Origin: Candidatus Aenigmatarchaeota archaeon
Lineage (GTDB): Archaea; Aenigmatarchaeota; Aenigmatarchaeia; GW2011-AR5
NCBI GenBank assembly: GCA_026397375.1
Contig: JAPLUZ010000022.1
Coordinates: forward strand, 24,234 to 88,233
Length of the DNA stretch: 64,000 nucleotides
Reading direction: 5' to 3'
Both the position numbers and the translations under genes were made by a program. The number at the start of each line of letters is the position of its first letter. Position 1 is the stretch's first letter. The notes below the pieces were generated by a model. The model was not told the origin of the DNA and made no database searches. It saw only the letters and a list, made by a program, of their open reading frames with translations. Below, piece by piece: positions 6,386-51,993 of the stretch.

Positions 6386-9088
6386 GTGATAAAAATGAAG
6401 TTTCAAATACTGGACATTGATTATTTTCTAAATAACAACAAGCCCGTTCTCAGAATATTCGGCAAACAGGAAGACGGGACATCGGTCTGCGGCATGTACG
6501 ACAAGCTGGAGCCATATTTTTATATAAGGCTTGGCGTATCATTTGACAAGGCACTGGATGAAATGGAGAAAATGAGGGAAATAAAGAATGTGGAGCAGGC
6601 AGAAAGGTTCGTGCCTCTCGGGTACCAAACAAGCAAGACAAAACTATTGAAGGTTACATTATGGAACCCGCAGGAAGTGCCAACCGTAAAATCAAAGCTA
6701 ATTGAATTGGGCATAGCAAAAGATATTTTCGAAGCGGACATACTTTTCAAGTATAGGTTTATGATTGATCACGGGTTCTATGGCATGCAATGGGTTGAAG
6801 CAGACGGAGAGTCGACAAAGACTGTAAAATCAAAGGTCAAAACCTATAAAATAAATTCCATAAAACCAATTGAAAAACAGGAGAACGCGCCAATAAGTTA
6901 CATGGCATTTGATATAGAATGCGTGCCGTCGGACCCAAAAAGACCGCTTGACGCCAGAAAAGATCCAATAGTGATGATATCCTTGTCTTTTGTGCCTGAA
7001 TACAGAAACAAAAAAGACATTGTACTTGTTGCAAAGCCTTTCACCGGCGAAGGGACAAAGGGATTTGCCAATGAGAAAGAGATGCTCGAAGAGTTTCTGA
7101 ATATTATAGAAACGTATGACCCGGATGTGCTCACAGGCTACAACATAAATTCCTTTGACTTTCCATACATTGTAGAAAGGCTGAAGCAGAACAAGCTCAA
7201 CGCATGCATAGGCAGGACAGACAAGGAGGCCTTCTCAAGAGAGTTTGGCATAACCAATGAATTTATTGTTACAGGCAGGGTCGTTGTCGACCCGTACCAG
7301 ATATTGAAAAGGGATCCGTGGGTAAAATTTCACAGGTACGACCTCAATACAGTGGCAAAGCAGCTGCTGAATGAAGAAAAACATGCAGTTGAATACGGAG
7401 AAATGGCAGGACTATGGAATGGAGGAAAAGAAGGCCTTTCCAGGCTTATAGAATACTGCAGAAGGGATGCTGATCTATCACTTAAACTGGTCTTGAACAG
7501 GGGAATGCTGGACAAATTCTTTGAACTGTCGAAGATATCAGGCCTGCTTTTACAGGACGTATTCGGCGGCCAGACAAGGCGCATAGAAGTAATGCTTTTG
7601 CATGAATTCAGGAAAAGGGATTTCGTAATGTCCGCCGCGCCGTCACGCAATGACATGAGCAGAAGAACAGGCGAAAGAAAGGACAACGAACTGAAAGGCG
7701 CAACTGTCCTGGAGCCGAAAAAGGGCCTGCACGCAGAAGGCTGTGTTCTGGTTTTGGATTTCAAAAGCCTGTACCCGTCTATAATGAGAACATTTAATGT
7801 ATCCCCTGACTCGGTATTGCTCGACAAAGAACTTATAGAAAAAGTGAAATCACACCAGTCACCTACAGGAACACATTTCGTTGATGGGGAAATTTACCAG
7901 GGAATATTTCCTTTTGTGCTTACAAAATTGCTCGATGCAAGAGGTGCAATAAAGAAGCAGATGAAGACAAGCGCAGGAGATGAGAAAAGGATATTGAATG
8001 CAAAACAGCTCGCGCTGAAAGATATATGCAATTCCTTTTACGGATACACAGGTTACATACGCGCCCGCCTGTACATGATAGACGTTGCCAATAGCATAAC
8101 AGGCTACGGCAGGGATAACATAGAAAAAACAAGAAAGCTGATTGAAGAAAACTTTGACGTGGAAGTTGTTTACGGAGACACGGATAGCATATTTTTGAAA
8201 ACAAAAACAACAAATCTTGAAGAAGCACAGGAACTTGGCACAAAAATATCCAAGTTCATTACAGAGAGGCTGCCGGGCTATCTGGAATTAGAATTCGAGA
8301 AAATATACAGGACATTCCTCATACTTTCAAAGAAGCGCTACGCAGGATGGAAATTTGAAAAGGTCGGAGACAAATGGAATGACGAAATGGAAATGCGCGG
8401 CATAGAAACCGTGCGCAGGGACTGGTGCATGCTTGTATCCGATGTGATGAACGAGGTCTTGAGAATTGTTCTGAAAGAAGGGGATCTGCAGGCGGCAATA
8501 ACATGCGTCAAGGATATTTTGGACAAGCTGCGCAAGGGAAAAATACCAATGGAAAAATTGACAATAATCAAAGGCATTACACAGAGCCTGGATGCATACA
8601 AAGGAACGCTGCCTCATATAGAACTTGCAAAAAAACTGGCTATAAGAAATCCACACGACCCGCCAAAGGTCGGGGACCGCCTGGAGTTTGTCATAATCAA
8701 GGGAAACCAGATGCTGTCAAAGAGGTCAGAAGACCCCAGATACGCAGAGCAGAATAACATACAGATAGATTCAGACTACTACATAAACAGCCAGCTATTC
8801 CCGCCAATAGAGAGAATATTTGCAGCCGTTGGCATTGATAAGAGCGAGATTTTCGGCAGCGGTCATCAGGCAAGCCTGGGTGACCTGCTTTCCGGAAAGA
8901 AGAGAACAATGAAACACGACATCGAAATAGAATACAAAAAACTGGAAGGAATAGAAGAGTTCATCTGCAAGAAATGCAACAAATCTTACAGGAGAATACC
9001 GCTTTCAGGCGTGTGTGAATGCGGCGGAGAATTGCTAATGAGCTACCACGGATCTGTAGGAGACAAAATAATTCTGGACAAAAAATAA
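6386..9088 (+). CDS. polB: Family B DNA polymerase (PolB), exonuclease and polymerase motifs intact
   Basis: 900 aa; Exo I FDIE, Exo II YNINSFDFPY, Exo III YCRRDA; Pol A DFKSLYPSI, Pol B KDICNSFYGYTGY, Pol C YGDTDS; C-terminal Cys4 zinc fingers; probable start ATG 6395. Confidence 0.9.
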   Translation: MIKMKFQILDIDYFLNNNKPVLRIFGKQEDGTSVCGMYDKLEPYFYIRLGVSFDKALDEMEKMREIKNVEQAERFVPLGYQTSKTKLLKVTLWNPQEVPTVKSKLIELGIAKDIFEADILFKYRFMIDHGFYGMQWVEADGESTKTVKSKVKTYKINSIKPIEKQENAPISYMAFDIECVPSDPKRPLDARKDPIVMISLSFVPEYRNKKDIVLVAKPFTGEGTKGFANEKEMLEEFLNIIETYDPDVLTGYNINSFDFPYIVERLKQNKLNACIGRTDKEAFSREFGITNEFIVTGRVVVDPYQILKRDPWVKFHRYDLNTVAKQLLNEEKHAVEYGEMAGLWNGGKEGLSRLIEYCRRDADLSLKLVLNRGMLDKFFELSKISGLLLQDVFGGQTRRIEVMLLHEFRKRDFVMSAAPSRNDMSRRTGERKDNELKGATVLEPKKGLHAEGCVLVLDFKSLYPSIMRTFNVSPDSVLLDKELIEKVKSHQSPTGTHFVDGEIYQGIFPFVLTKLLDARGAIKKQMKTSAGDEKRILNAKQLALKDICNSFYGYTGYIRARLYMIDVANSITGYGRDNIEKTRKLIEENFDVEVVYGDTDSIFLKTKTTNLEEAQELGTKISKFITERLPGYLELEFEKIYRTFLILSKKRYAGWKFEKVGDKWNDEMEMRGIETVRRDWCMLVSDVMNEVLRIVLKEGDLQAAITCVKDILDKLRKGKIPMEKLTIIKGITQSLDAYKGTLPHIELAKKLAIRNPHDPPKVGDRLEFVIIKGNQMLSKRSEDPRYAEQNNIQIDSDYYINSQLFPPIERIFAAVGIDKSEIFGSGHQASLGDLLSGKKRTMKHDIEIEYKKLEGIEEFICKKCNKSYRRIPLSGVCECGGELLMSYHGSVGDKIILDKK

Positions 9089-28030: not shown

Positions 28031-29023
28031 ATGAAGCATCCACTGGTTAGTTTTGTGATAATAGCTCTGAATGAAGAGAAAAACATAGGAAAATTAATCA
28101 AATCTATAAAAAACAACACTTACAAGGAAGTAGAAATAGTAGTCGTCGACGGCGGGTCGAAGGACAAAACAGTACAAATAGCAAGAAAGATGGGGGCAAG
28201 AATAATAAAAGAGATTGGAAATAAGGGGCCCGGAAATGCAAAAAACCAAGGGGTTTCTGCGGCAAAGGGTAAAATAGTAATACGAATAGATGCCGACTTA
28301 AAAGGCATAAACAAAAAGTTTATCGAAAATATAGTAAAAAGATTTAGTGAAAATGGAGTTATTGCTGTAGCACCAAGAAAACATGAAGCGCTATCGACAT
28401 TTTGGGAAAAAAGTATATACGAAAACCGGCAACTTACCCATTTTATATTTAATGCTATTAGAGGCAGATTTCAAACAATAGATAAGAAAACAGAATCATG
28501 GTACTTGTACCCGATTGCTATGTTAAGAAAAACATTTTTTGAGGTAGGTGGATATGATAATGTGGGGTTCGAAGATCGTTTATTTCTCAAAAAATTTGAC
28601 AAATACTGTAAAGAAAATAGCGTAAAATGTGTTCACGAATCTAAAAGTATAATGTATATGTCTCATCCTCAAACTCTTGACGAAATACTTAAACAATACG
28701 AGTGGTATTCCAGGGGTGCTATACAATACTTTCAACTGACTGGCGACAAGAAGGAATTTTTGCTTTTCTTGATTCTGCTTTCCCAGCCATTATTGATAGC
28801 AAGTGTATTTATGATTAATTTTCATATTTTATTCAAAGTTTTATCTGCTTTATATCTGATAAAAATTATTTTTCTGACTTTGTATTTTGTTATTTACAGA
28901 AAATTCCACGTTGTTGTCACACCTATACTTGATTTTTTTGGTGGGGTGTGGAAGTACTATGGCTTAATAAGGCTCGCAAAGATGAAAATTAAAAAATCCG
29001 ACAGAATATACTCTAGAGGCTGA
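28031..29023 (+). CDS. GT2-family glycosyltransferase with C-terminal TM helices
   Basis: VSFVIIALNEEKNI...EIVVVDGGSKDKT...IDAD. Confidence 0.65.
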   Translation: MKHPLVSFVIIALNEEKNIGKLIKSIKNNTYKEVEIVVVDGGSKDKTVQIARKMGARIIKEIGNKGPGNAKNQGVSAAKGKIVIRIDADLKGINKKFIENIVKRFSENGVIAVAPRKHEALSTFWEKSIYENRQLTHFIFNAIRGRFQTIDKKTESWYLYPIAMLRKTFFEVGGYDNVGFEDRLFLKKFDKYCKENSVKCVHESKSIMYMSHPQTLDEILKQYEWYSRGAIQYFQLTGDKKEFLLFLILLSQPLLIASVFMINFHILFKVLSALYLIKIIFLTLYFVIYRKFHVVVTPILDFFGGVWKYYGLIRLAKMKIKKSDRIYSRG

Positions 29024-29044
29024 CTGTATGACTGTATGACTGTA
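29021..29044 (+). repeat. 3 x 8-bp tandem repeat tgactgta at the stop codon of the GT2 gene
   Basis: Read directly: tgactgtatgactgtatgactgta. Confidence 0.8.
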
Positions 29045-29077: not shown

Positions 29078-29785
29078 GTGGACCAAAAAAAATATTACAA
29101 CGACCTGTCGAAGGGAAAGATAAAGGTAAGAGACATAGACATAAAATTCACCTCAAAATGGCTTGAAAAAAGCGTGATAAACTTCGCAGACCTTGGTAAG
29201 GACCTAAAAGTTCTGGACGCAGGGTGCGGAAGGGGGAGGCTTGAGGACAAGCTGGTTGGAAAATGCGACATAATAGGAGTAGATATATCAGCAGGGGAGA
29301 TAACTAGGGCTAAAACTGGTAAATTCCTTGTTTCGGATGTGACACAGCTGCCATTCGATTCAAACGTATTCGACAGAATAATATCCATGGAGGTTGTAGA
29401 GCACCTTCCATCCAAAGATAAAGTCAGGCATTTTTTTGAAGAATCGTACAGGATACTAAAGCCTGGCGGCGTGCTGAGCTTGTCTACCCCAAACGTGAAT
29501 AACCTCGTGTTCTTTTTTACACATATTGTAAAGGGAAAAAGAAATCCCAACCCAGTATTGCACCCTACCATGCTTACAAAGAAATATTTAGTAAAGACGG
29601 CGAAAGAGGCAGGATTTAACATAAAAATATTCAAAACGTACCTTTTCCCTATACCCGTTCCAAGATACGAGTATATATTTCCGACATATTTGATGAAGAT
29701 TCTAAATAAAATTGGTGAACTGCCAGGATTTGGTAGTGTATCTTTCGGATTTGTAATGAAAGCGGAAAAGCGCAATGAGCCTTGA
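29078..29785 (+). CDS. Class I SAM-dependent methyltransferase
   Basis: VLDAGCGRGRL motif I, ISMEVVEHL motif. Confidence 0.6.
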   Translation: MDQKKYYNDLSKGKIKVRDIDIKFTSKWLEKSVINFADLGKDLKVLDAGCGRGRLEDKLVGKCDIIGVDISAGEITRAKTGKFLVSDVTQLPFDSNVFDRIISMEVVEHLPSKDKVRHFFEESYRILKPGGVLSLSTPNVNNLVFFFTHIVKGKRNPNPVLHPTMLTKKYLVKTAKEAGFNIKIFKTYLFPIPVPRYEYIFPTYLMKILNKIGELPGFGSVSFGFVMKAEKRNEP

Positions 29786-38118: not shown

Positions 38119-38895
38119 ATGAAAGTTGCAATACTGTGTGGAGGCCTTGGTACAAGACTTAAGGAAGAGACAGAATTCCGGCCAAAACCCCTAGTGGAAA
38201 TAGGTGGTAAGCCTATATTGTGGCATATCATGAAAATTTACTCGTATGCAGGATTCAAAGATTTCGTTTTATGCCTGGGCTATAAGGGCGATATGATAAA
38301 GAATTATTTCTTGAATTATGAAACTACAGAAAATGACTTTACAATAGACTTTTCTAATAAAAAATCAATAACACTGCATAATAATTCAAATAAAACCGAA
38401 GATTGGAGAATAACATTTGCCGATACGGGATTAAATTCCATGACAGGCGCCAGGGTTAAAAGAATTGAAAAATTTATAGATGGAAATGAGTTCATGTTAA
38501 CCTATGGAGACGGTGTTGCCAATGTGAATGTTAATGATATTATTAAATTTCACAGAAACCACGATAAAATAGGAACTGTTCTCGGCGTGAGGCCACCGTC
38601 AAAATTTGGCGAGATGGCTTTGGATACCAACAGAGTTATATCTTTTGTAGAAAAACCAAATTCGACCCAGGGCTTTGTAAATGGCGGGTTTTTTGTATTC
38701 AAAAATGGGATTTTTGATTACTTGAATGAAAATGAAGACTGTATTTTAGAGAAAGAACCGCTGGAAAATCTTGCCACTAATGGACAACTCATGATGTATC
38801 CTCATGAAGGATTTTGGCAATGTATGGACACTTATAGAGACTTCTTGTATTTGAACCAGCTCTGGCCAAATGCCCCATGGAAACGGTTGCTATGA
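38119..38895 (+). CDS. rfbF: Glucose-1-phosphate cytidylyltransferase
   Basis: MKVAILCGGLGTRLKEETEFRPKPLVEIGGKPILWHIMKIYS closely matches the RfbF/DdhA N-terminus. Confidence 0.85.
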   Translation: MKVAILCGGLGTRLKEETEFRPKPLVEIGGKPILWHIMKIYSYAGFKDFVLCLGYKGDMIKNYFLNYETTENDFTIDFSNKKSITLHNNSNKTEDWRITFADTGLNSMTGARVKRIEKFIDGNEFMLTYGDGVANVNVNDIIKFHRNHDKIGTVLGVRPPSKFGEMALDTNRVISFVEKPNSTQGFVNGGFFVFKNGIFDYLNENEDCILEKEPLENLATNGQLMMYPHEGFWQCMDTYRDFLYLNQLWPNAPWKRLL

Positions 38896-46179: not shown

Positions 46180-47472
46180 TTAAGAAATCAACGGAAATTC
46201 TCTCCTGACTTTTTTAAGTCTTTCAGGCGTCCCTATATCTTTTATGTAAGCATCGGATAAATATCCGTATATTTTTTCCTTGTTAAGCAACTTGAACAAA
46301 ACATCTTTTTCTATATTTGAAATACCGTTTGGTATACGATCTAAAATTTTAGTCCTTAGTACCATTATTCCCACGTTGGCAGTTTTGTGAATATCTTGGC
46401 CACGGCCTATATATTTTGTCACCTCATTTTTTTCATTAATTTTTATAATATCGCTATCTATAGGGTGGTCGGTCTTACGCAGAACAACAGTTGCAATTCC
46501 GCTATGAGAAAAATGAAACCTCAAAAGAGAACCGATATTCATGTTTGTTATTACATCACCATTCAGCACAATAATATTTTCAGCATTAACAAGGTACTGT
46601 GCAGCATTTTTTATTGCGCCGCCTGTGCCCAAAGGCTCTTTTTCCCCTGGATAGTCTATGTGAACGCGGAATTTTCTGCCGTCACCGAAATAGGCCTTTA
46701 TTTTGTCAACGAGATAAGAACCGCAAATAACTATTTCATTTACTCCATATTTCTTCAGGAGATTTATGTGATATTCTAATACAGGTTTGCCGTTAATGGG
46801 GATCATGGGCTTTGGCAGGTCTTTTGTAAGTGGCAGAAGCCTTTCGCCTTTACCGCCGGCAAGAATAATTGCCTTTGTTTTTATCAAATTCCTAATTAGC
46901 GTGGCCGCATTTAACAATGTGTCACATTCGTAATCTGCTTTTATGTCATGTTTTTTGTCTTTCCCTGCGACACCGGTCTTTACAAGTATTGTCCTTGTTC
47001 CGGCGTTTTTACCTGCTAATATATCAACCGTACGATCGCCGACAGTGAAGGATCCAGTAAGGTCTACGTTATATTTTTTAGCGGCTTCCAGTATCATACC
47101 AGGATTTGGCTTTCTGCAACTACATTCTACCCTGTATTTTTTTGCATGCTCTGGAACATCACTGTATTGCTCTGGGTGATGGGGACAGAAATAAAAATCG
47201 TCTATGTGGGCGCCCCTTTTCATCAAATCTTTTTGAACTTTATCGTTTATTTTTTTCACGCCGTCTTCAGATATCAGGCCTCTTGCGACCTGTGGTTGGT
47301 TTGTCACAACGATGACCTTTACGCCACTTTTATTCAACATCTTTATGCCTTCTGCTGCGCCGTCTTCAAGTTCTATTTCTTCTGGCTTTACAACAAGGGA
47401 AGTCTTCTTCGTCACTGTTCCATCCCTGTCAAGAAAGACGGCTCGCATAAAATCACATGGCATCGTAGCCAA
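46180..47472 (-). CDS. Bifunctional D,D-heptose 1,7-bisphosphate phosphatase (GmhB, HAD) / D,D-heptose-1-phosphate nucleotidyltransferase (HddC-like) fusion
   Basis: N-term VFLDRDGTV...CSCRKPNPGM (GmhB signature); C-term KAIILAGGKGERLLPLTKDLPKPMIPINGKPVL nucleotidyltransferase. Confidence 0.75.
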   Translation of the reverse strand: MATMPCDFMRAVFLDRDGTVTKKTSLVVKPEEIELEDGAAEGIKMLNKSGVKVIVVTNQPQVARGLISEDGVKKINDKVQKDLMKRGAHIDDFYFCPHHPEQYSDVPEHAKKYRVECSCRKPNPGMILEAAKKYNVDLTGSFTVGDRTVDILAGKNAGTRTILVKTGVAGKDKKHDIKADYECDTLLNAATLIRNLIKTKAIILAGGKGERLLPLTKDLPKPMIPINGKPVLEYHINLLKKYGVNEIVICGSYLVDKIKAYFGDGRKFRVHIDYPGEKEPLGTGGAIKNAAQYLVNAENIIVLNGDVITNMNIGSLLRFHFSHSGIATVVLRKTDHPIDSDIIKINEKNEVTKYIGRGQDIHKTANVGIMVLRTKILDRIPNGISNIEKDVLFKLLNKEKIYGYLSDAYIKDIGTPERLKKVRREFPLIS

Positions 47473-48037
47473 ACAAGTTCTTTATGACAAGAGCACATAC
47501 CCTGTGGTAAGCAATTATATGGCCTTCCTGTATTATTGATACATTGGAAGCAGGTATGTTTAGAAGAAAATCAGCAATTTCTTTTATTTTGCCTCCAGAT
47601 TCTCCTGTAAAACCAATTGTTGTAGCACCTATTTTCTTTGCTTCTTCCATAGCATTTATTACATTCATGGAATTGCCGCTGGTGCTTATGCCTATTATTA
47701 CGTCACCTTTTTTTGCATTGGCTTGGACAAAGCGTACGAAACACATGTCGTAGTTGAAGTCATTGCTTATTGCTGTCAGGGCCGACATGTTAGAAGGCGT
47801 TAAAGCAGACAGGGCTTTCCTACCTTTATCTATGGACGACAGCTGACCTTCGAACTCGGCAGCAAAGTGATTGGCGTCGGCCGCAGAGCCGCCGTTGCCG
47901 AAGATAAGTAATTTACCGTCATTCTGGTAGCATTTTGTTATAACTTCGGCCACATCTTCTATGGATTTCAAATCTAAGGAATCAACCATTTTTTTGTGCA
48001 TATCTATTTTGTCTTTGAGGTAATTCATTTTTATCAC
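47453..48037 (-). CDS. gmhA: Sedoheptulose-7-phosphate isomerase (phosphoheptose isomerase, SIS domain)
   Basis: LLIFGNGGSAADANHFAAEF SIS motif, 194 aa. Confidence 0.75.
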   Translation of the reverse strand: MIKMNYLKDKIDMHKKMVDSLDLKSIEDVAEVITKCYQNDGKLLIFGNGGSAADANHFAAEFEGQLSSIDKGRKALSALTPSNMSALTAISNDFNYDMCFVRFVQANAKKGDVIIGISTSGNSMNVINAMEEAKKIGATTIGFTGESGGKIKEIADFLLNIPASNVSIIQEGHIIAYHRVCALVIKNLFGYDAM

Positions 48038-49032
48038 CCTACAAAAGAGAAGTTTATACGCTTCGCACCAAAGGGCGCAATGGCATCCATTATTTTTTCC
48101 TGATTTTTTGAAAAGAAAACAGCGCAGCCACCACCACCTGCTCCAAGGAATCGCCCACCAAGGGCACCAGCGTCCATGGCAGCTGAGTATACGTCTTCTA
48201 CACGTGCATTTGATATGGAGGTTGCCAGATTTTTCTTTAGTATCCAGTCCTTGTGCATGAGGCGGCCGAAATCTTCAAACCTTCCCTCCTCAAGGGAGGC
48301 CCTTATTTTCTCCACGTTGCCCCTTCTATCAATTAGAACATCAATAACTTCTGATTTTTTCTCTTTCTGCTCCTTGTGAATATCCTTGCCTTTTGTTTCA
48401 CGCTTGATATAAACAAGAAGCAATTTGTCTTCAAGGGATTTCAGATCTGCCTGGGACAAATTTAATCTCTTTGTCTCGACACGCCGGTTGGCGAATTTCA
48501 TATAATTTAATCCACCAATGGCAGATGCCCATTGGTCCTGGTAACCGCCGGCAACACCACAGACATTTCTTTCCAGATGGTAAGCCAACCGAGCCACCTG
48601 TGTTGGCGGCATTATTATATCATTGAATTTGTTGAAAGCCTTTATTACAGCTATGGCATGGGCTGCACTACCGCCAAGACCGCTTTCCAGCGGAGCGTCG
48701 GTCCATGTTTTGACTTCTATGCCTGTGTTGCCGTAGTGTTTAATTATAACTTTGGTCAGATTCAGTTCTCTGACATCAAAATTCATATCTTCCAGCGCAT
48801 CGAATGCAATTTCATCGCCGGTTTCCATGGATTTTATAACTATTTTGCCGTCGGTACGCTCATCTATTGAACAATAGGAGAACATGTTAACCGCGGCATT
48901 TACAGTGTTACCCCAGCCTATCAGGTTCATGTAATAATCCGTATCGCCGCAGCTGCCAAAGGTTATCCTCACAGGAGATTTTTCCGCTATCATAAAATCC
49001 ACTCTACTTGTCGTAACCAAGGTCCCTTGCAT
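48034..49032 (-). CDS. GHMP-family D-glycero-alpha-D-manno-heptose 7-phosphate kinase (HddA-like)
   Basis: GHMP motif ESGLGGSAAHAIAV; 332 aa; operonic with gmhA and gmhB-hddC. Confidence 0.6.
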   Translation of the reverse strand: MQGTLVTTSRVDFMIAEKSPVRITFGSCGDTDYYMNLIGWGNTVNAAVNMFSYCSIDERTDGKIVIKSMETGDEIAFDALEDMNFDVRELNLTKVIIKHYGNTGIEVKTWTDAPLESGLGGSAAHAIAVIKAFNKFNDIIMPPTQVARLAYHLERNVCGVAGGYQDQWASAIGGLNYMKFANRRVETKRLNLSQADLKSLEDKLLLVYIKRETKGKDIHKEQKEKKSEVIDVLIDRRGNVEKIRASLEEGRFEDFGRLMHKDWILKKNLATSISNARVEDVYSAAMDAGALGGRFLGAGGGGCAVFFSKNQEKIMDAIAPFGAKRINFSFVG

Positions 49033-49247
49033 TCCTCAGGGTTTCTATAGTCTCTAGCATGGGGGCTGGCAGGCCTGTAAGTTCTTTGTCTGAAATAGCC
49101 GCTTCATCCTTATAAACAACGCCCGTAACTTGGTCTATAGAATAATTATGACCACCGCTTTCGTCTATTGGAATAAGATAAAACACATCTTTCGTATGCA
49201 ACACCTTCTAATTGATGCTGGAATTGGTTTTAAATAGGTTAAATGTT

Positions 49248-49267
49248 CATACTTTTTCATACTTTTT
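49248..49267 (+). repeat. 10-bp tandem repeat catacttttt x2 immediately upstream of the RHH-nucleotidyltransferase gene (candidate operator)
   Basis: Read directly; ends 11 bp before ATG 49279. Confidence 0.7.
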
Positions 49268-49278
49268 CGACAGAAGGT

Positions 49279-50115
49279 ATGAATATGATAAAAAGAGTAA
49301 CAATAACTGTAAAGCAGGACCTGTTAAGAAAACTGGACAGGATGATAGATAGGCAACATGTAAAAAACAGGTCCCATGCAGTGGAGCAATTAATAATAAG
49401 GGGCTTATCGAAGACGGATTTGGATACGGCTATTATAATGGCGGGCGGCGATGGGGCAAGATTAAGGCCAATAACCTATGAAATACCCAAGCCGCTTATA
49501 CCTGTTAAGGGAAGGCCGGTTCTTGAACACCAATTAAACATGCTAAAAAACTATGACATAAGAAATGTCACTCTGGCTGTTGGCGAAAACTATGAAAAAA
49601 TAAAAGAGTATTTTGGAAATGGCAACAAGTTCGGAATTAACATAGAGTATCTGGTTGAGCAGAGGTCTATGGGAAATGTAGGTGCCCTGAGTCTGATAAA
49701 AAATAAAATAAAAAACACATTTATCGTTCTGAATGTGGATGCATTAATAAATCCTGACATTTCTGAGATGTACACCTTCCATAAAAAAGAAGGCAGGCTG
49801 GCTACGGTTCTGCTGGCGCAGGTTGACGATCCAAGTGACTACGGCGTGGCAAAAATGCGCGGCAGTCAGATAATAGATTTTGAAGACAGGCCAAGCCGCA
49901 CAGAATCAAACCTGGTTGATGCCAGCTTCTACATATTCGAGCCAGAGGTTCTAAAATTTATGAAAAAAGGAAAAATGATGATGAAGGACCTGCTTAAAAT
50001 TCTGGTGCAGGAAAACCAACTGTCTGGTTTCTTATATGATGGCTTCCTCTTCGACGTAGCAACGCATGAAGGCTATGAAAGGGCTATTAAAAACTGGAAA
50101 CCAGCCTTTGCTTGA
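49279..50115 (+). CDS. Ribbon-helix-helix (NikR/CopG-like) DNA-binding domain fused to a sugar-phosphate nucleotidyltransferase domain
   Basis: N-term KRVTITVKQDLLRKLDRMIDRQHVKNRSHAVEQLIIRGL (compare NikR RVTITLDDDLLETLDSL...NRSEAIRDIL); C-term IMAGGDGARLRPITYEIPKPLIPVKGRPVLEH NTP-transferase. Confidence 0.6.
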   Translation: MNMIKRVTITVKQDLLRKLDRMIDRQHVKNRSHAVEQLIIRGLSKTDLDTAIIMAGGDGARLRPITYEIPKPLIPVKGRPVLEHQLNMLKNYDIRNVTLAVGENYEKIKEYFGNGNKFGINIEYLVEQRSMGNVGALSLIKNKIKNTFIVLNVDALINPDISEMYTFHKKEGRLATVLLAQVDDPSDYGVAKMRGSQIIDFEDRPSRTESNLVDASFYIFEPEVLKFMKKGKMMMKDLLKILVQENQLSGFLYDGFLFDVATHEGYERAIKNWKPAFA

Positions 50116-50145
50116 TCTTTTAAGATTAAATATTCAAAATTTAGC

Positions 50146-51993
50146 ATGCGGTTGCTAAACTGCATTCTAATCCTATTTTTCCTTGCTTACCCGTCACACG
50201 CTATAATCATAAATGAAGTAATGTACAATCCTATCGGTTCTGATAGCGGAAACGAATGGCTAGAAATCTACAATAATGATACAGAAACATACAATCTAAC
50301 AGGATGGAAAATAAATATTGATGACACAGACCATACGCTTAATGTCCCGCCAAGCAACGGCGGGATAGGATCAATGATAGTTGACCCTGGTAATTATGTC
50401 ATAATAGCGCAGGATGCAATAAAATTTTTGAGTAATTATCCAAGCTACAATGGAACGGCCATCGACAGCTCTTGGGATAATCTAGTAAATTCTGTAAACA
50501 AAACCATATGGATAAGAAATTCCACAAATGTATTTCATAACATAACAACCTTTGCTAATTTAACAGAAGGAAAAACGTTTTGCCTGATTAACAGCATCTT
50601 TATGGGATGCGACCCAACACCAGGATATGTCAATGGTCTTGTACAAAATACTACAGGTCAGACTGACGAACAAAACAATATAACCGGTTCGTGTGATTTA
50701 GGGCTATGGATAGAAACAAGTTCGGATGTTTATAACGTTTCCACAATTTATTTTGACATCAAAGTAAATGATACAAACTGCACTGAAAAAGATACCACGA
50801 TAAATTATTATATTCAAGATTTGTTCGGTAACATTGTAAAAGCGCCTGTCGATTCGGTCATCAATTTAGCATGTACGGCGTCTTTGCAGCACCAGTGGAC
50901 GCCCGATGACATGCAGGGTTCAGAAGCGTACTATATAATTGGGAATATTGTGAACGCAGACTGTAATGACACAAACATGAATAACAATGTCGCCTCAAGA
51001 CTAATAGTTGTCAAAGGAAACAACATTCAGACAGGTTCTTCTATAGATATAATTTCTGTTGATATGGGTTCTGACAATTCTGTAAAATATGGAGAAGCGG
51101 CTAACATAAAAATAAGGGCATATCGGGGCGATACATCAAAATATGCAATAGATGTTTGGATAGAGAATTCAGGCAAAAAACTCAGCAGTATAAGCACAAT
51201 GCATGCAAAGAACAAGTTCACCGAATACGAATTTCAGGTTCCTGTCCAATTGAAATCAAATTGCGACAACGCTTTCAATGATGGCGAATACGACGTTATC
51301 GCTGACGGCTTGGACATAACAAAAACAGCAAAGATAAATATTTCAGGCATCTCAACAACAAACTGCAAGACAATAACTATAAGCACAAGCGGTGGCGGAA
51401 GCAACTCGTATAGCTACACACCAAGCGAATTGTTTTCCCACGAAATAACAAAATATGAAAGTACCGCGGAAACAGGCGAAGAAATAGAAACTATTGTAAA
51501 CATAGTCAATAATTTCACAACACAGAAAAACTTCACGGTATATTCCTATGTTTACAAAGGCAACAATCCTGTTTCTTCCGGCCTTAATGAGAAGAATGAA
51601 TGGAAGGGCGGTTATACGGCAAACTCAATATCGTTTCTGCTTAATCCAAAGGAATCAAAGAACATTGTTCTAAAGAATAAGATAGATGAAGACACAGAGC
51701 AAGGCATGTATAATTTTAGAGTAAGAATAAAAGTTGACGGCAAGGACAATGATATAACAAAGGATATTTACGTCATAAAATCAAACACGACAAATATCAT
51801 TTCTTCTGCAGGATCGGGAATAGATTCTGGCGCAAAATCAAACAATATAATCGCAACCAACAGAACAATAGAAAAAGTTTCTAAAATGACGGGATTGATT
51901 ACAGACAAACCCAAGATAAACTCGAACTTGAATATATTTCAGCCGCCTTTGATTGTTCTGTTTAATTTTATAATGGCACTTTTCTGGGCATAA
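50146..51993 (+). CDS. Secreted/anchored lamin-tail-domain (LTD) surface protein, Asn/Thr-rich with many N-X-S/T sequons (candidate S-layer or surface glycoprotein)
   Basis: Signal peptide, LTD signature IINEVMYNP...NEWLEIYNNDTETYNLTGW, more than 25 N-X-S/T sequons, C-terminal hydrophobic anchor. Confidence 0.6.
   Translation: MRLLNCILILFFLAYPSHAIIINEVMYNPIGSDSGNEWLEIYNNDTETYNLTGWKINIDDTDHTLNVPPSNGGIGSMIVDPGNYVIIAQDAIKFLSNYPSYNGTAIDSSWDNLVNSVNKTIWIRNSTNVFHNITTFANLTEGKTFCLINSIFMGCDPTPGYVNGLVQNTTGQTDEQNNITGSCDLGLWIETSSDVYNVSTIYFDIKVNDTNCTEKDTTINYYIQDLFGNIVKAPVDSVINLACTASLQHQWTPDDMQGSEAYYIIGNIVNADCNDTNMNNNVASRLIVVKGNNIQTGSSIDIISVDMGSDNSVKYGEAANIKIRAYRGDTSKYAIDVWIENSGKKLSSISTMHAKNKFTEYEFQVPVQLKSNCDNAFNDGEYDVIADGLDITKTAKINISGISTTNCKTITISTSGGGSNSYSYTPSELFSHEITKYESTAETGEEIETIVNIVNNFTTQKNFTVYSYVYKGNNPVSSGLNEKNEWKGGYTANSISFLLNPKESKNIVLKNKIDEDTEQGMYNFRVRIKVDGKDNDITKDIYVIKSNTTNIISSAGSGIDSGAKSNNIIATNRTIEKVSKMTGLITDKPKINSNLNIFQPPLIVLFNFIMALFWA

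Follow-up and report, generated by a model that had tools for sequence, protein, structure and literature searches.

A NikR-like ribbon-helix-helix domain fused to a sugar nucleotidyltransferase in DPANN archaea and CPR bacteria, with a conserved predicted operator at its own promoter

In a 64,000-nucleotide stretch of the genome of a Candidatus Aenigmatarchaeota archaeon (assembly GCA_026397375.1, contig JAPLUZ010000022.1, positions 24,234 to 88,233; hereafter the window, in whose own numbering positions are given), one gene encodes a protein in which a DNA-binding domain of the NikR/CopG ribbon-helix-helix (RHH) type, at the N terminus, is joined to a sugar-1-phosphate nucleotidyltransferase (NTase). 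Our computational analysis shows that this fusion is conserved, that its DNA-reading strand is like that of NikR, and that a hexamer pair of conserved sequence occupies a conserved position at the promoter. We consider it probable, at roughly 0.7 for the whole proposed reading, that the gene encodes a bifunctional enzyme that would also repress its own transcription. The features of such an enzyme-repressor, or “trigger enzyme” (a class defined by function, not by homology), occur together here, a DNA-binding domain and an intact enzyme domain in one polypeptide and a predicted operator at its own promoter. A “moonlighting enzyme-repressor” had been among the suggestions of an earlier reading of the window made from the sequence alone (the original prediction), and we adopt it as the best explanation in view of the two domains, the catalytic residues and the conserved operator at the promoter.

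The fused protein and its family

Recognition of the RHH domain rests on several routes. Pfam RHH_1 (PF01402) matches aa 4-39 with E=1.3e-5 and a score of 25.4 bits, above its gathering threshold (20.5), and was detected at E<=0.01 in 39 of the 60 family members tested. An AlphaFold2 model built on 60 homologues (mean predicted local distance difference test score, pLDDT, 90.9; 83-93 in the RHH region) has residues 1-10 extended, helices at 11-20 and 29-42, and then the nucleotidyltransferase fold. This is the strand-helix-helix topology of the RHH superfamily, found here in a single-chain model; the N-terminal strand receives no DSSP assignment because the model is a monomer. When a profile of the 47 N-terminal columns from 33 family members was run against solved structures, NikR and CopG were the only relatives returned (E. 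coli NikR, 1q5v/2hzv, E=1.5e-7; P. horikoshii NikR, E=4.6e-4; CopG, 0.03). In the resulting alignment NikR “QRVTITLDDDLLETLD...NNRSEAI” stands opposite “ERVTITIKKDLLKKVD...RNRSHAI” of the family, and the NikR strand QRVTITL is aligned with ERVTITI. Residues R4, T6, T8, N28, R29, S30 and A32 are conserved, the three reading-strand positions in 53, 53 and 55 of 60 members respectively, and the N-R-S-H-A motif that caps helix 2 is nearly invariant. The resemblance to NikR/CopG repressors claimed by the original prediction is thus substantiated, and the segment, which might have failed profile searches, passes them and is translated and conserved family-wide. A search with the 46-aa RHH profile for other architectures returned 23 proteins, all of them short or partial.

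The assignment of the remainder of the protein as a sugar-1-phosphate NTase also held. NTP_transferase (PF00483) was detected in 60 of 60 members tested, and the catalytic residues G54, G55, G57, R59, R61, K69, D152 and D257 are present and nearly invariant in an alignment of 60 members, with R202 also present in the window protein; the window protein carries the GGxGxR(L)xP...PK loop and the two Mg-binding Asp. The closest structures by sequence profile are 8x7s (tlr0611, a UDP-glucose pyrophosphorylase, UGPase; 2.6e-55) and 7d72 (GMPPB; 3.7e-54), and further solved relatives include VTC1 (7x8j), the RmlA-like 3hl3, MurU and RmlA-type enzymes. Foldseek gave query-normalised TM-scores of 0.71-0.77 to 3hl3, 8x7s, 7x8j and 7d72. 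Matches by either method begin at residue 44-49 or later, and neither the profile search nor Foldseek found a structure spanning both domains. GMPPB, VTC1, tlr0611 (a CugP-type UGPase) and the short RmlA-like enzymes share the GGxGxRLRPxT...PK, D and D motifs with the window protein, but none has an RHH domain, and the C-terminal left-handed beta-helix of GMPPB and GlmU is missing from the fused family. Most likely the C-terminal domain is catalytically active and belongs with the hexose-1-phosphate nucleotidyltransferases of the GMPP/CugP group; the most plausible product is GDP-mannose or UDP-glucose. No sugar could be assigned, because every NCBIfam equivalog model scores far below its cut-off for this protein. 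Two candidates were rejected individually. HddC, of GDP-D-glycero-alpha-D-manno-heptose synthesis, scores 102.7 bits against a cut-off of 300 (NF049965), and the adjoining operon has its own gene joining a HAD phosphatase to an NTase. Archaeal GlmU (Arch_glmU, TIGR03992) scores 141.4 bits against 292.1 over profile positions 2-215 of 393 only, and the window protein stops after the NTase, without the left-handed beta-helix acetyltransferase. Public annotation goes no further than “sugar phosphate nucleotidyltransferase” or “NTP transferase domain-containing protein”.

The extent of the gene needed correction. A mechanically called open reading frame (ORF), 49243-50115 (+), had been taken as the gene, but the gene most likely begins at ATG 49285 (MIKRVTITV...), because that start is the one conserved in homologues. 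The start at 49243 was ruled out, as its first 14 codons are translated promoter and operator, and so was the in-frame ATG at 49279, whose frame is not kept in relatives; in locus L001 the equivalent ATG is out of frame. The resulting 276-aa protein is 100% identical to an NCBI protein (P0001) from a Candidatus Aenigmarchaeota metagenome-assembled genome (MAG). The residues FILFHTF are conserved upstream of the start in two homologues (P0010 and P0017) because the DNA of the operator, not a protein, is conserved there. Coordinates are collected in Table 1.

Table 1. Features of the gene, its control region and the divergent operon (window positions)
Feature	Position	Strand	Basis or remark
Divergent heptose-activation operon	46180-49032	-	Pfam; possible co-regulated target
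HAD phosphatase fused to NTase	46180-47472	-	Pfam
SIS isomerase	47453-48037	-	Pfam
GHMP kinase	48034-49032	-	Pfam
66-aa ORF between operator and GHMP kinase gene	49004-49204	-	GTG at 49204, ~25 nt from palindromic TATA core
TATA-box-like TTTAAATA	49229-49236	+	TTAAATA invariant in seven orthologous upstream regions; function predicted from consensus and position
10-bp tandem repeat TTCATACTTT x2.3, proposed operator	49246-49268	+	Tandem Repeats Finder (TRF), repeat search, orthologue conservation
Half-site 1, TCATAC	49247-49252	+	Sequence; equals NikR half-site (PMC7055735)
Half-site 2, TCATAC	49257-49262	+	Sequence; overlaps predicted transcription start ~49259-49261
Half-site 3, GTATGA, inverted	49277-49282	+	14 nt past half-site 2; inverted repeats I1/I2
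RHH-nucleotidyltransferase gene	49285-50115 (including stop)	+	276 aa; ORF and homologue starts
NikR/CopG-type RHH DNA-binding domain	49285-49422	+	aa 1-46; Pfam, profile, AlphaFold2, conserved residues
Sugar-1-phosphate nucleotidyltransferase domain	49429-50091	+	aa 49-269; PF00483 E=9e-42

Proteins with this fusion make up a large family without a name, which has a wide distribution across DPANN archaea and bacteria of the candidate phyla radiation (CPR, Patescibacteria). A protein search returned 775 relatives, the best 120 of which are 269-295 aa long (about 275), cover 91-99% of the query (97-99% in all but one) and without exception conserve the N-terminal segment. With one genome taken per GTDB species we confirmed at least 571 loci, and Joint Genome Institute (JGI) metagenomes supplied 567 more, so that the architecture is not rare. 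Among the best 80 of the at least 571 loci, all but two match from query residue 1-7, and those two lie near contig ends. The archaeal labels in these 80 are Aenigmatarchaeota, Altiarchaeota, Woesearchaeota, Nanoarchaeota, Parvarchaeota (including ARMAN-4), Diapherotrites and Iainarchaeum; about 27 carry CPR labels (Gottesman-, Roizman-, Berkel-, Andersen-, Kerfeld- and Buchananbacteria, Microgenomates and Saccharibacteria). A few labels on third-party bins, Methanosarcinales and Gammaproteobacteria among them, probably reflect mis-binning. Full-text literature searches covering DPANN, CPR and NikR-like proteins returned no publication on an RHH plus nucleotidyltransferase architecture, in agreement with the earlier statement that no characterised member was known.

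A conserved hexamer pair at the promoter

The original prediction had read a perfect 10-bp repeat, catacttttt x2 at 49248-49267, as a direct-repeat operator. The register was correct: TRF reports a period of 10, 2.3 copies and a 100% match at 49246-49268, and a repeat search found TTCATACTTT twice. The repeat begins 9 nt downstream of the TATA-like TTTAAATA and ends 17 nt upstream of the corrected gene start. Taken alone it is weak evidence, because there are three arrays of similar score in the 64-kb window. It nevertheless stands far above chance, because the TATA box and TTCATACTTTTTCATACT are conserved and the hexamer pair recurs throughout the family. In a footprint of seven orthologues (53-76% protein identity) the upstream regions have diverged save for three invariant blocks, namely TTAAATA, TTCATACTT-TTCATACT (that is, TTCATACTTTTTCATACT) and G-T-(A/G)-T-G just before the start. 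Perfect copies of TCATACTTTT number two in the window, both inside the repeat, with 18 one-mismatch copies against 10 expected, and no second pair or palindromic site was found at a promoter position anywhere in the 64 kb. Half-site 3 overlaps a Shine-Dalgarno-like GAAGGT (49273-49278) and the non-conserved ATG at 49279. It is present as GTATGA or GTGTGA in 8 of 13 loci of the Aenigmarchaeota clade and is retained in locus L081, where the next gene is a ROK kinase; since it is kept there before a different gene, we regard it as regulatory and not coding.

The only other tandem arrays scoring at least 40 in the window are TGACTGTA x3, perfect, at 29021-29044, and ATTTTTGATATT x2.4 at 158-185. 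The former starts at the last three bases of the ORF 28031-29023 (a crude call) and enters the gap before 29078-29785. Both arrays could be sites of other regulators.

Across the family the core of the site is a TCATAC hexamer repeated with a 10-11 bp period. It was counted both as a strict pattern in the 120 nt upstream of each gene and as a pair score (maximum 12) over 150 nt, with an RHH-bearing set that includes 15 genes assigned by hand inspection. Of 119 upstream regions, 33 contain the strict pattern TCATAY-N4-5-TCATAY, where the other 1.29 Mb of these loci would predict 0.0016 per region. Pair scores of at least 11 precede 48 of 147 RHH-bearing genes (33%), compared with 10 of 1442 other genes (0.7%), 7 of 2640 shuffles (0.3%) and none of the 11 close homologues without RHH; at a score of at least 10 the corresponding counts are 75 of 147 (51%), 48 of 1442, 83 of 2640 and, again, 0 of 11. 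The pair also follows the protein that it precedes. Scores of at least 11 were seen with 46 of 113 reading strands of the R-T-T type and with none of 20 that have K, Q, P, E or H in place of the Arg. Because the hexamer pair tracks the R-T-T strand, and the hexamer itself is shared with NikR, we see here the strongest computational argument for the prediction that the protein binds its own repeats. The repeat thus remains a predicted operator, now footprinted in orthologues, enriched only before RHH-bearing genes and built on the NikR half-site core. Repeated DNA sub-sites are also what RHH proteins, as obligate dimers with a two-stranded antiparallel sheet, bind in general.

The DNA covered by the analysis (1.3 Mb) contains 78 sites scoring at least 11, of which about 58 lie directly before a family gene, while most of the others stand at the head of an operon containing a family gene or before the next gene. 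In three CPR loci the site heads an operon of glyceraldehyde-3-phosphate dehydrogenase (GAPDH), phosphoglycerate kinase (PGK) and RHH-NTase genes (L097, 3704-3719; L134, 3805-3820; L157, 3739-3754), which suggests that the RHH-NTase may also control lower glycolysis genes in these organisms. In L081 it heads a ROK kinase-RHH-NTase operon. In three further CPR loci (L121, 2868-2893; L123, 6941-6966; L145, 1944-1959) two or three GTATGA hexamers and a TTGACx -35 box of their own lie before a gene just past the RHH-NTase gene. It encodes an uncharacterised protein of 334-389 aa, whose match to DUF6206 is weak and sub-threshold.

The position of the pair relative to the promoter is informative. 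In the clade of the window the layout is TATA - N9-11 - TCATAC - TTTT - TCATAC - N14-15 - GTATGA - 0-4 nt - ATG. Archaeal transcription usually starts some 26 nt from the TATA box, and this spacing predicts a start within half-site 2, near 49259-49261; protein bound there would be expected to occlude polymerase recruitment at this promoter. In CPR loci the pair is reversed (GTATGAT-N3-GTATGAT) and falls between or over the TTGACx -35 box and the -10 region. In most of those listed it lies 2-12 nt past the -35 box, across the spacer and the -10 region, again the position of a repressor. Since the pair is found with TATA as well as with -35/-10 promoters, and in opposite orientations, it is not a basal promoter element. 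Two CPR loci have further tandem arrays in this region, each able to form a large hairpin: in L058 (~7903-7985) GGTAGGTT... and then CCTACC.../CTACCAAT... lie between the operator and the RHH-NTase start, and in L122 (~20-118) AGGTTGT... and then CCTACAAC... lie directly before it.

Enzyme, repressor or both

From these data we infer DNA binding, repression rather than activation, an oligomeric state, catalysis and the kind of ligand, which together give the following scheme. Two N-terminal RHH segments would pair into a NikR-like dimer, whose two-stranded sheet (R4, T6, T8) would read one TCATAC in the major groove. Nucleotidyltransferase domains form dimers or tetramers in relatives, and here they may hold two or more RHH dimers together, so that the oligomer could sit on the two direct half-sites (49247-52 and 49257-62), whose spacing is one helical turn, and probably on the inverted one as well, two turns beyond (49277-82). 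A protein bound just past the TATA box, and over the predicted start and ribosome-binding site, would keep RNA polymerase from being recruited and so repress the gene itself; through the shared control region it might also act on the divergent heptose operon. Whether product, substrate or nucleotide fills the active site would then set the affinity for DNA, giving feedback on the nucleotide-sugar pool.

Several observations weigh against this scheme. About half of the RHH-bearing genes have no recognisable pair (score of at least 10 within 150 nt), and in these the operator is elsewhere, diverged or absent. The enrichment counts are phylogenetically non-independent, yet they come from both archaea and bacteria and from two types of promoter. 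Loci of the Woesearchaeota and Nanoarchaeota type have two TATA-like boxes with the pair between them, upstream of the gene-proximal box, where it could activate or belong to a second promoter. On the enzymatic side, the E-K-P motif reads D-R-P in the window protein (K in 51 and R in 7 of 60 members), and the Arg of G-x-G-x-R is missing in about a quarter of the family. Finally, the palindrome TTCATAC...GTATGAA could also act as an RNA hairpin.

The alternative that survives best, although we consider it unlikely for the window protein, is that of a pure transcription factor in which the NTase domain is a catalytically silent ligand sensor, comparable to the metal-binding domain of NikR, and makes no NDP-sugar. 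A degenerate or deleted glycine-rich loop is seen in seven loci (L076, L086, L116, L146, L148, L152 and L158) and also in the proteins P0050, P0084 and P0086. About eight such members keep the RHH domain and strong pairs, with a score of 12/12 in four of the seven loci and 9-10 in the others, and they are likely to be regulator-only derivatives. Their retention of RHH and operator therefore indicates that the DNA-binding role is selected on its own and that regulation can outlast catalysis. A silent sensor would also fit the substitution of Arg for the E-K-P lysine noted above and the presence of two other NTase genes, without RHH, in the window. Against it, the window protein and most members retain the complete catalytic set, and in 34 of 132 loci a co-oriented phosphoglucomutase/phosphomannomutase (PGM/PMM) gene follows immediately downstream, as would be expected of a working pathway enzyme. 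The intact catalytic residues make a pure sensor less likely here, though it is possible in some lineages.

It also should be considered that the palindrome TTCATAC-N14-GTATGAA may form a leader RNA hairpin that hides the Shine-Dalgarno sequence and the start, giving translational control, alone or in addition to an operator. The segment 49255-49300 does fold, to -10.3 kcal/mol (z=-3.4), and a stem of 6-9 bp is possible in eight orthologues, with L002 pairing via a G-U wobble. However, the arms vary so little that covariation contributes next to nothing (-0.05 kcal/mol), the predicted transcription start would leave most of the 5' arm untranscribed, and no Rfam match was found in 48800-50300. 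Most family members, moreover, have direct repeats only, often upstream of the proximal TATA or in bacterial core promoters, an arrangement that does not allow this hairpin, and overall we judge the hairpin improbable. Least probable of all is an ordinary enzyme with an oligomerising or functionless RHH tail and repeats that are promoter elements or another factor's site, a reading which accords with the public annotation, with the likeness of the CPR GTATGAT to a -10 hexamer and with the fact that a 10-bp repeat by itself is not rare in the window, but which leaves unexplained why the same pair occurs under archaeal and bacterial promoters in opposite orientations, is missing before the close homologues without RHH, tracks the R-T-T strand, equals the half-site of the closest solved RHH protein, NikR, and accompanies a nearly invariant helix 2 cap.

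The preferred reading, an autorepressing enzyme, has partial precedents, of which NikR is the nearest for DNA recognition. Both proteins have the R-V-T-I-T reading strand and the N-R-S-x-A helix cap, and in both an N-terminal RHH precedes a C-terminal domain that binds a ligand and oligomerises (in the fused protein by prediction). NikR is a tetramer with one RHH dimer at each end, and the tetramer thus bears two RHH dimers. In its operator complex (2HZV) the bases are read by R3, T5 and T7 of the sheet, positions that the fused family keeps as R4, T6 and T8. The C-terminal domain of NikR is an ACT-like tetrameric nickel-binding domain (the P. horikoshii structure 2bj1 is also NikR), in contrast to the PF00483 domain of about 230 aa found here, and its context is nickel uptake rather than sugar metabolism. 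The E. coli NikR operator is GTATGA-N16-TCATAC (PMC7055735), with hexamers identical to the repeat core of the window gene. Its half-sites are inverted and about two turns apart, whereas the window gene has direct repeats with a 10-bp period plus TCATAC-N14-GTATGA.

For the coupling of enzyme and repressor the closest architecture is PutA, which has an N-terminal RHH fused to a metabolic enzyme and is an autogenous repressor (PMC5293562). The likeness to the window protein, for which autorepression is predicted, extends to all three of these elements. PutA differs in being a proteobacterial, trifunctional PRODH/P5CDH flavoenzyme that switches by associating with the membrane on reduction. The window protein is in turn comparable to two enzymes that double as repressors without an RHH. 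BirA and NadR are pathway enzymes that repress the same pathway and employ adenylate chemistry, and in BirA the reaction intermediate is the corepressor, a logic that serves as a model for the ligand control proposed here. Both differ from the window protein in their helix-turn-helix DNA-binding domains and in their catalytic folds and substrates.

Genomic setting and biological meaning

The gene lies where the original prediction had put it, between a heptose operon, which Pfam supports, and a sequon-rich surface protein. The operon is followed by an epimerase gene and one for a PMT-like glycosyltransferase. Its divergent arrangement is retained in relatives of 53-76% identity, and in about 11 loci the operator-bearing intergenic region is shared with the GHMP kinase gene. 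With its palindromic core the TATA-like element could serve both divergent transcripts, and the 66-aa ORF has its GTG about 25 nt from that core, so that a shared bidirectional promoter is possible. The 66-aa ORF itself was rejected as a conserved divergent gene, as it has no similarity to the ORFs of 105-117 aa at the same place in L161, L162 and L164. The GHMP kinase probably begins at an internal ATG (MIAEKSPVRITFG), judging by its relatives.

On the other side, at 50146-51993 (+), a gene encodes a secreted protein with a lamin tail domain (LTD). Its 615 aa include 18 N-x-S/T sequons, a density of 29 per 1000 aa; the other proteins of the window that are at least 150 aa long have 0-15.5. 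In L161 and L162, too, the RHH-NTase is followed by an LTD protein, and in L081 by one that is LTD-like by its N-terminal sequence. Further upstream of the RHH-NTase gene is a large glycosylation island with GT2 and GT4 transferases, dehydratases, epimerases, a DegT aminotransferase and a plain NTase. This last (38119-38895, +) adjoins the dehydratase and DegT aminotransferase genes and, like the HAD-fused NTase of the heptose operon, has no RHH, which brings the NDP-sugar-forming enzymes of the window, the RHH-bearing one included, to at least three. The suggestion that the protein regulates the whole island is not supported, because the 64 kb hold only one good operator. The shared control region covers at most the RHH-NTase gene and the divergent heptose operon.

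Elsewhere in the family the PGM/PMM gene mentioned above is the commonest neighbour. Other recurrent neighbours encode phosphoglucose/phosphomannose isomerase (PGI/PMI), ROK kinase, GAPDH, PGK, phosphofructokinase (PFK), fructose-bisphosphate (FBP) aldolase or phosphatase and UDP-glucose dehydrogenase. Such neighbours place the enzyme at the point where nucleotide sugars branch off from hexose phosphates.

DPANN archaea and CPR bacteria are ultra-small episymbionts, mostly uncultured, with very few transcription factors and a cell surface that is needed for attachment to the host. To our knowledge almost nothing has been reported on gene regulation in either group. What is provided here is a protein together with a predicted operator of defined sequence, kept from archaeal TATA to bacterial sigma-70 promoters. 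TCATAC-N4-5-TCATAC can serve as a search motif for regulon mapping in thousands of MAGs, and the prediction is directly testable with recombinant protein and a 60-bp DNA fragment. If it is true, a nucleotide-sugar enzyme would join the short list of enzyme-repressors (PutA, BirA, NadR), and the DNA-reading head of NikR would have been reused with a different sensor domain and half-site geometry.

More tentatively, the RHH-NTase may be a cross-domain, one-component regulator of sugar activation in DPANN and CPR, exchanged together with its operator, in which sensing is linked to catalysis and the NDP-sugar product or a reaction intermediate would act as corepressor, as in BirA. The supply of surface glycans would then be coupled to the nucleotide-sugar pool. 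In some CPR lineages the lower part of glycolysis would be coupled to it too, as suggested by the gap-pgk-RHH-NTase operons, which carry the operator at their head.

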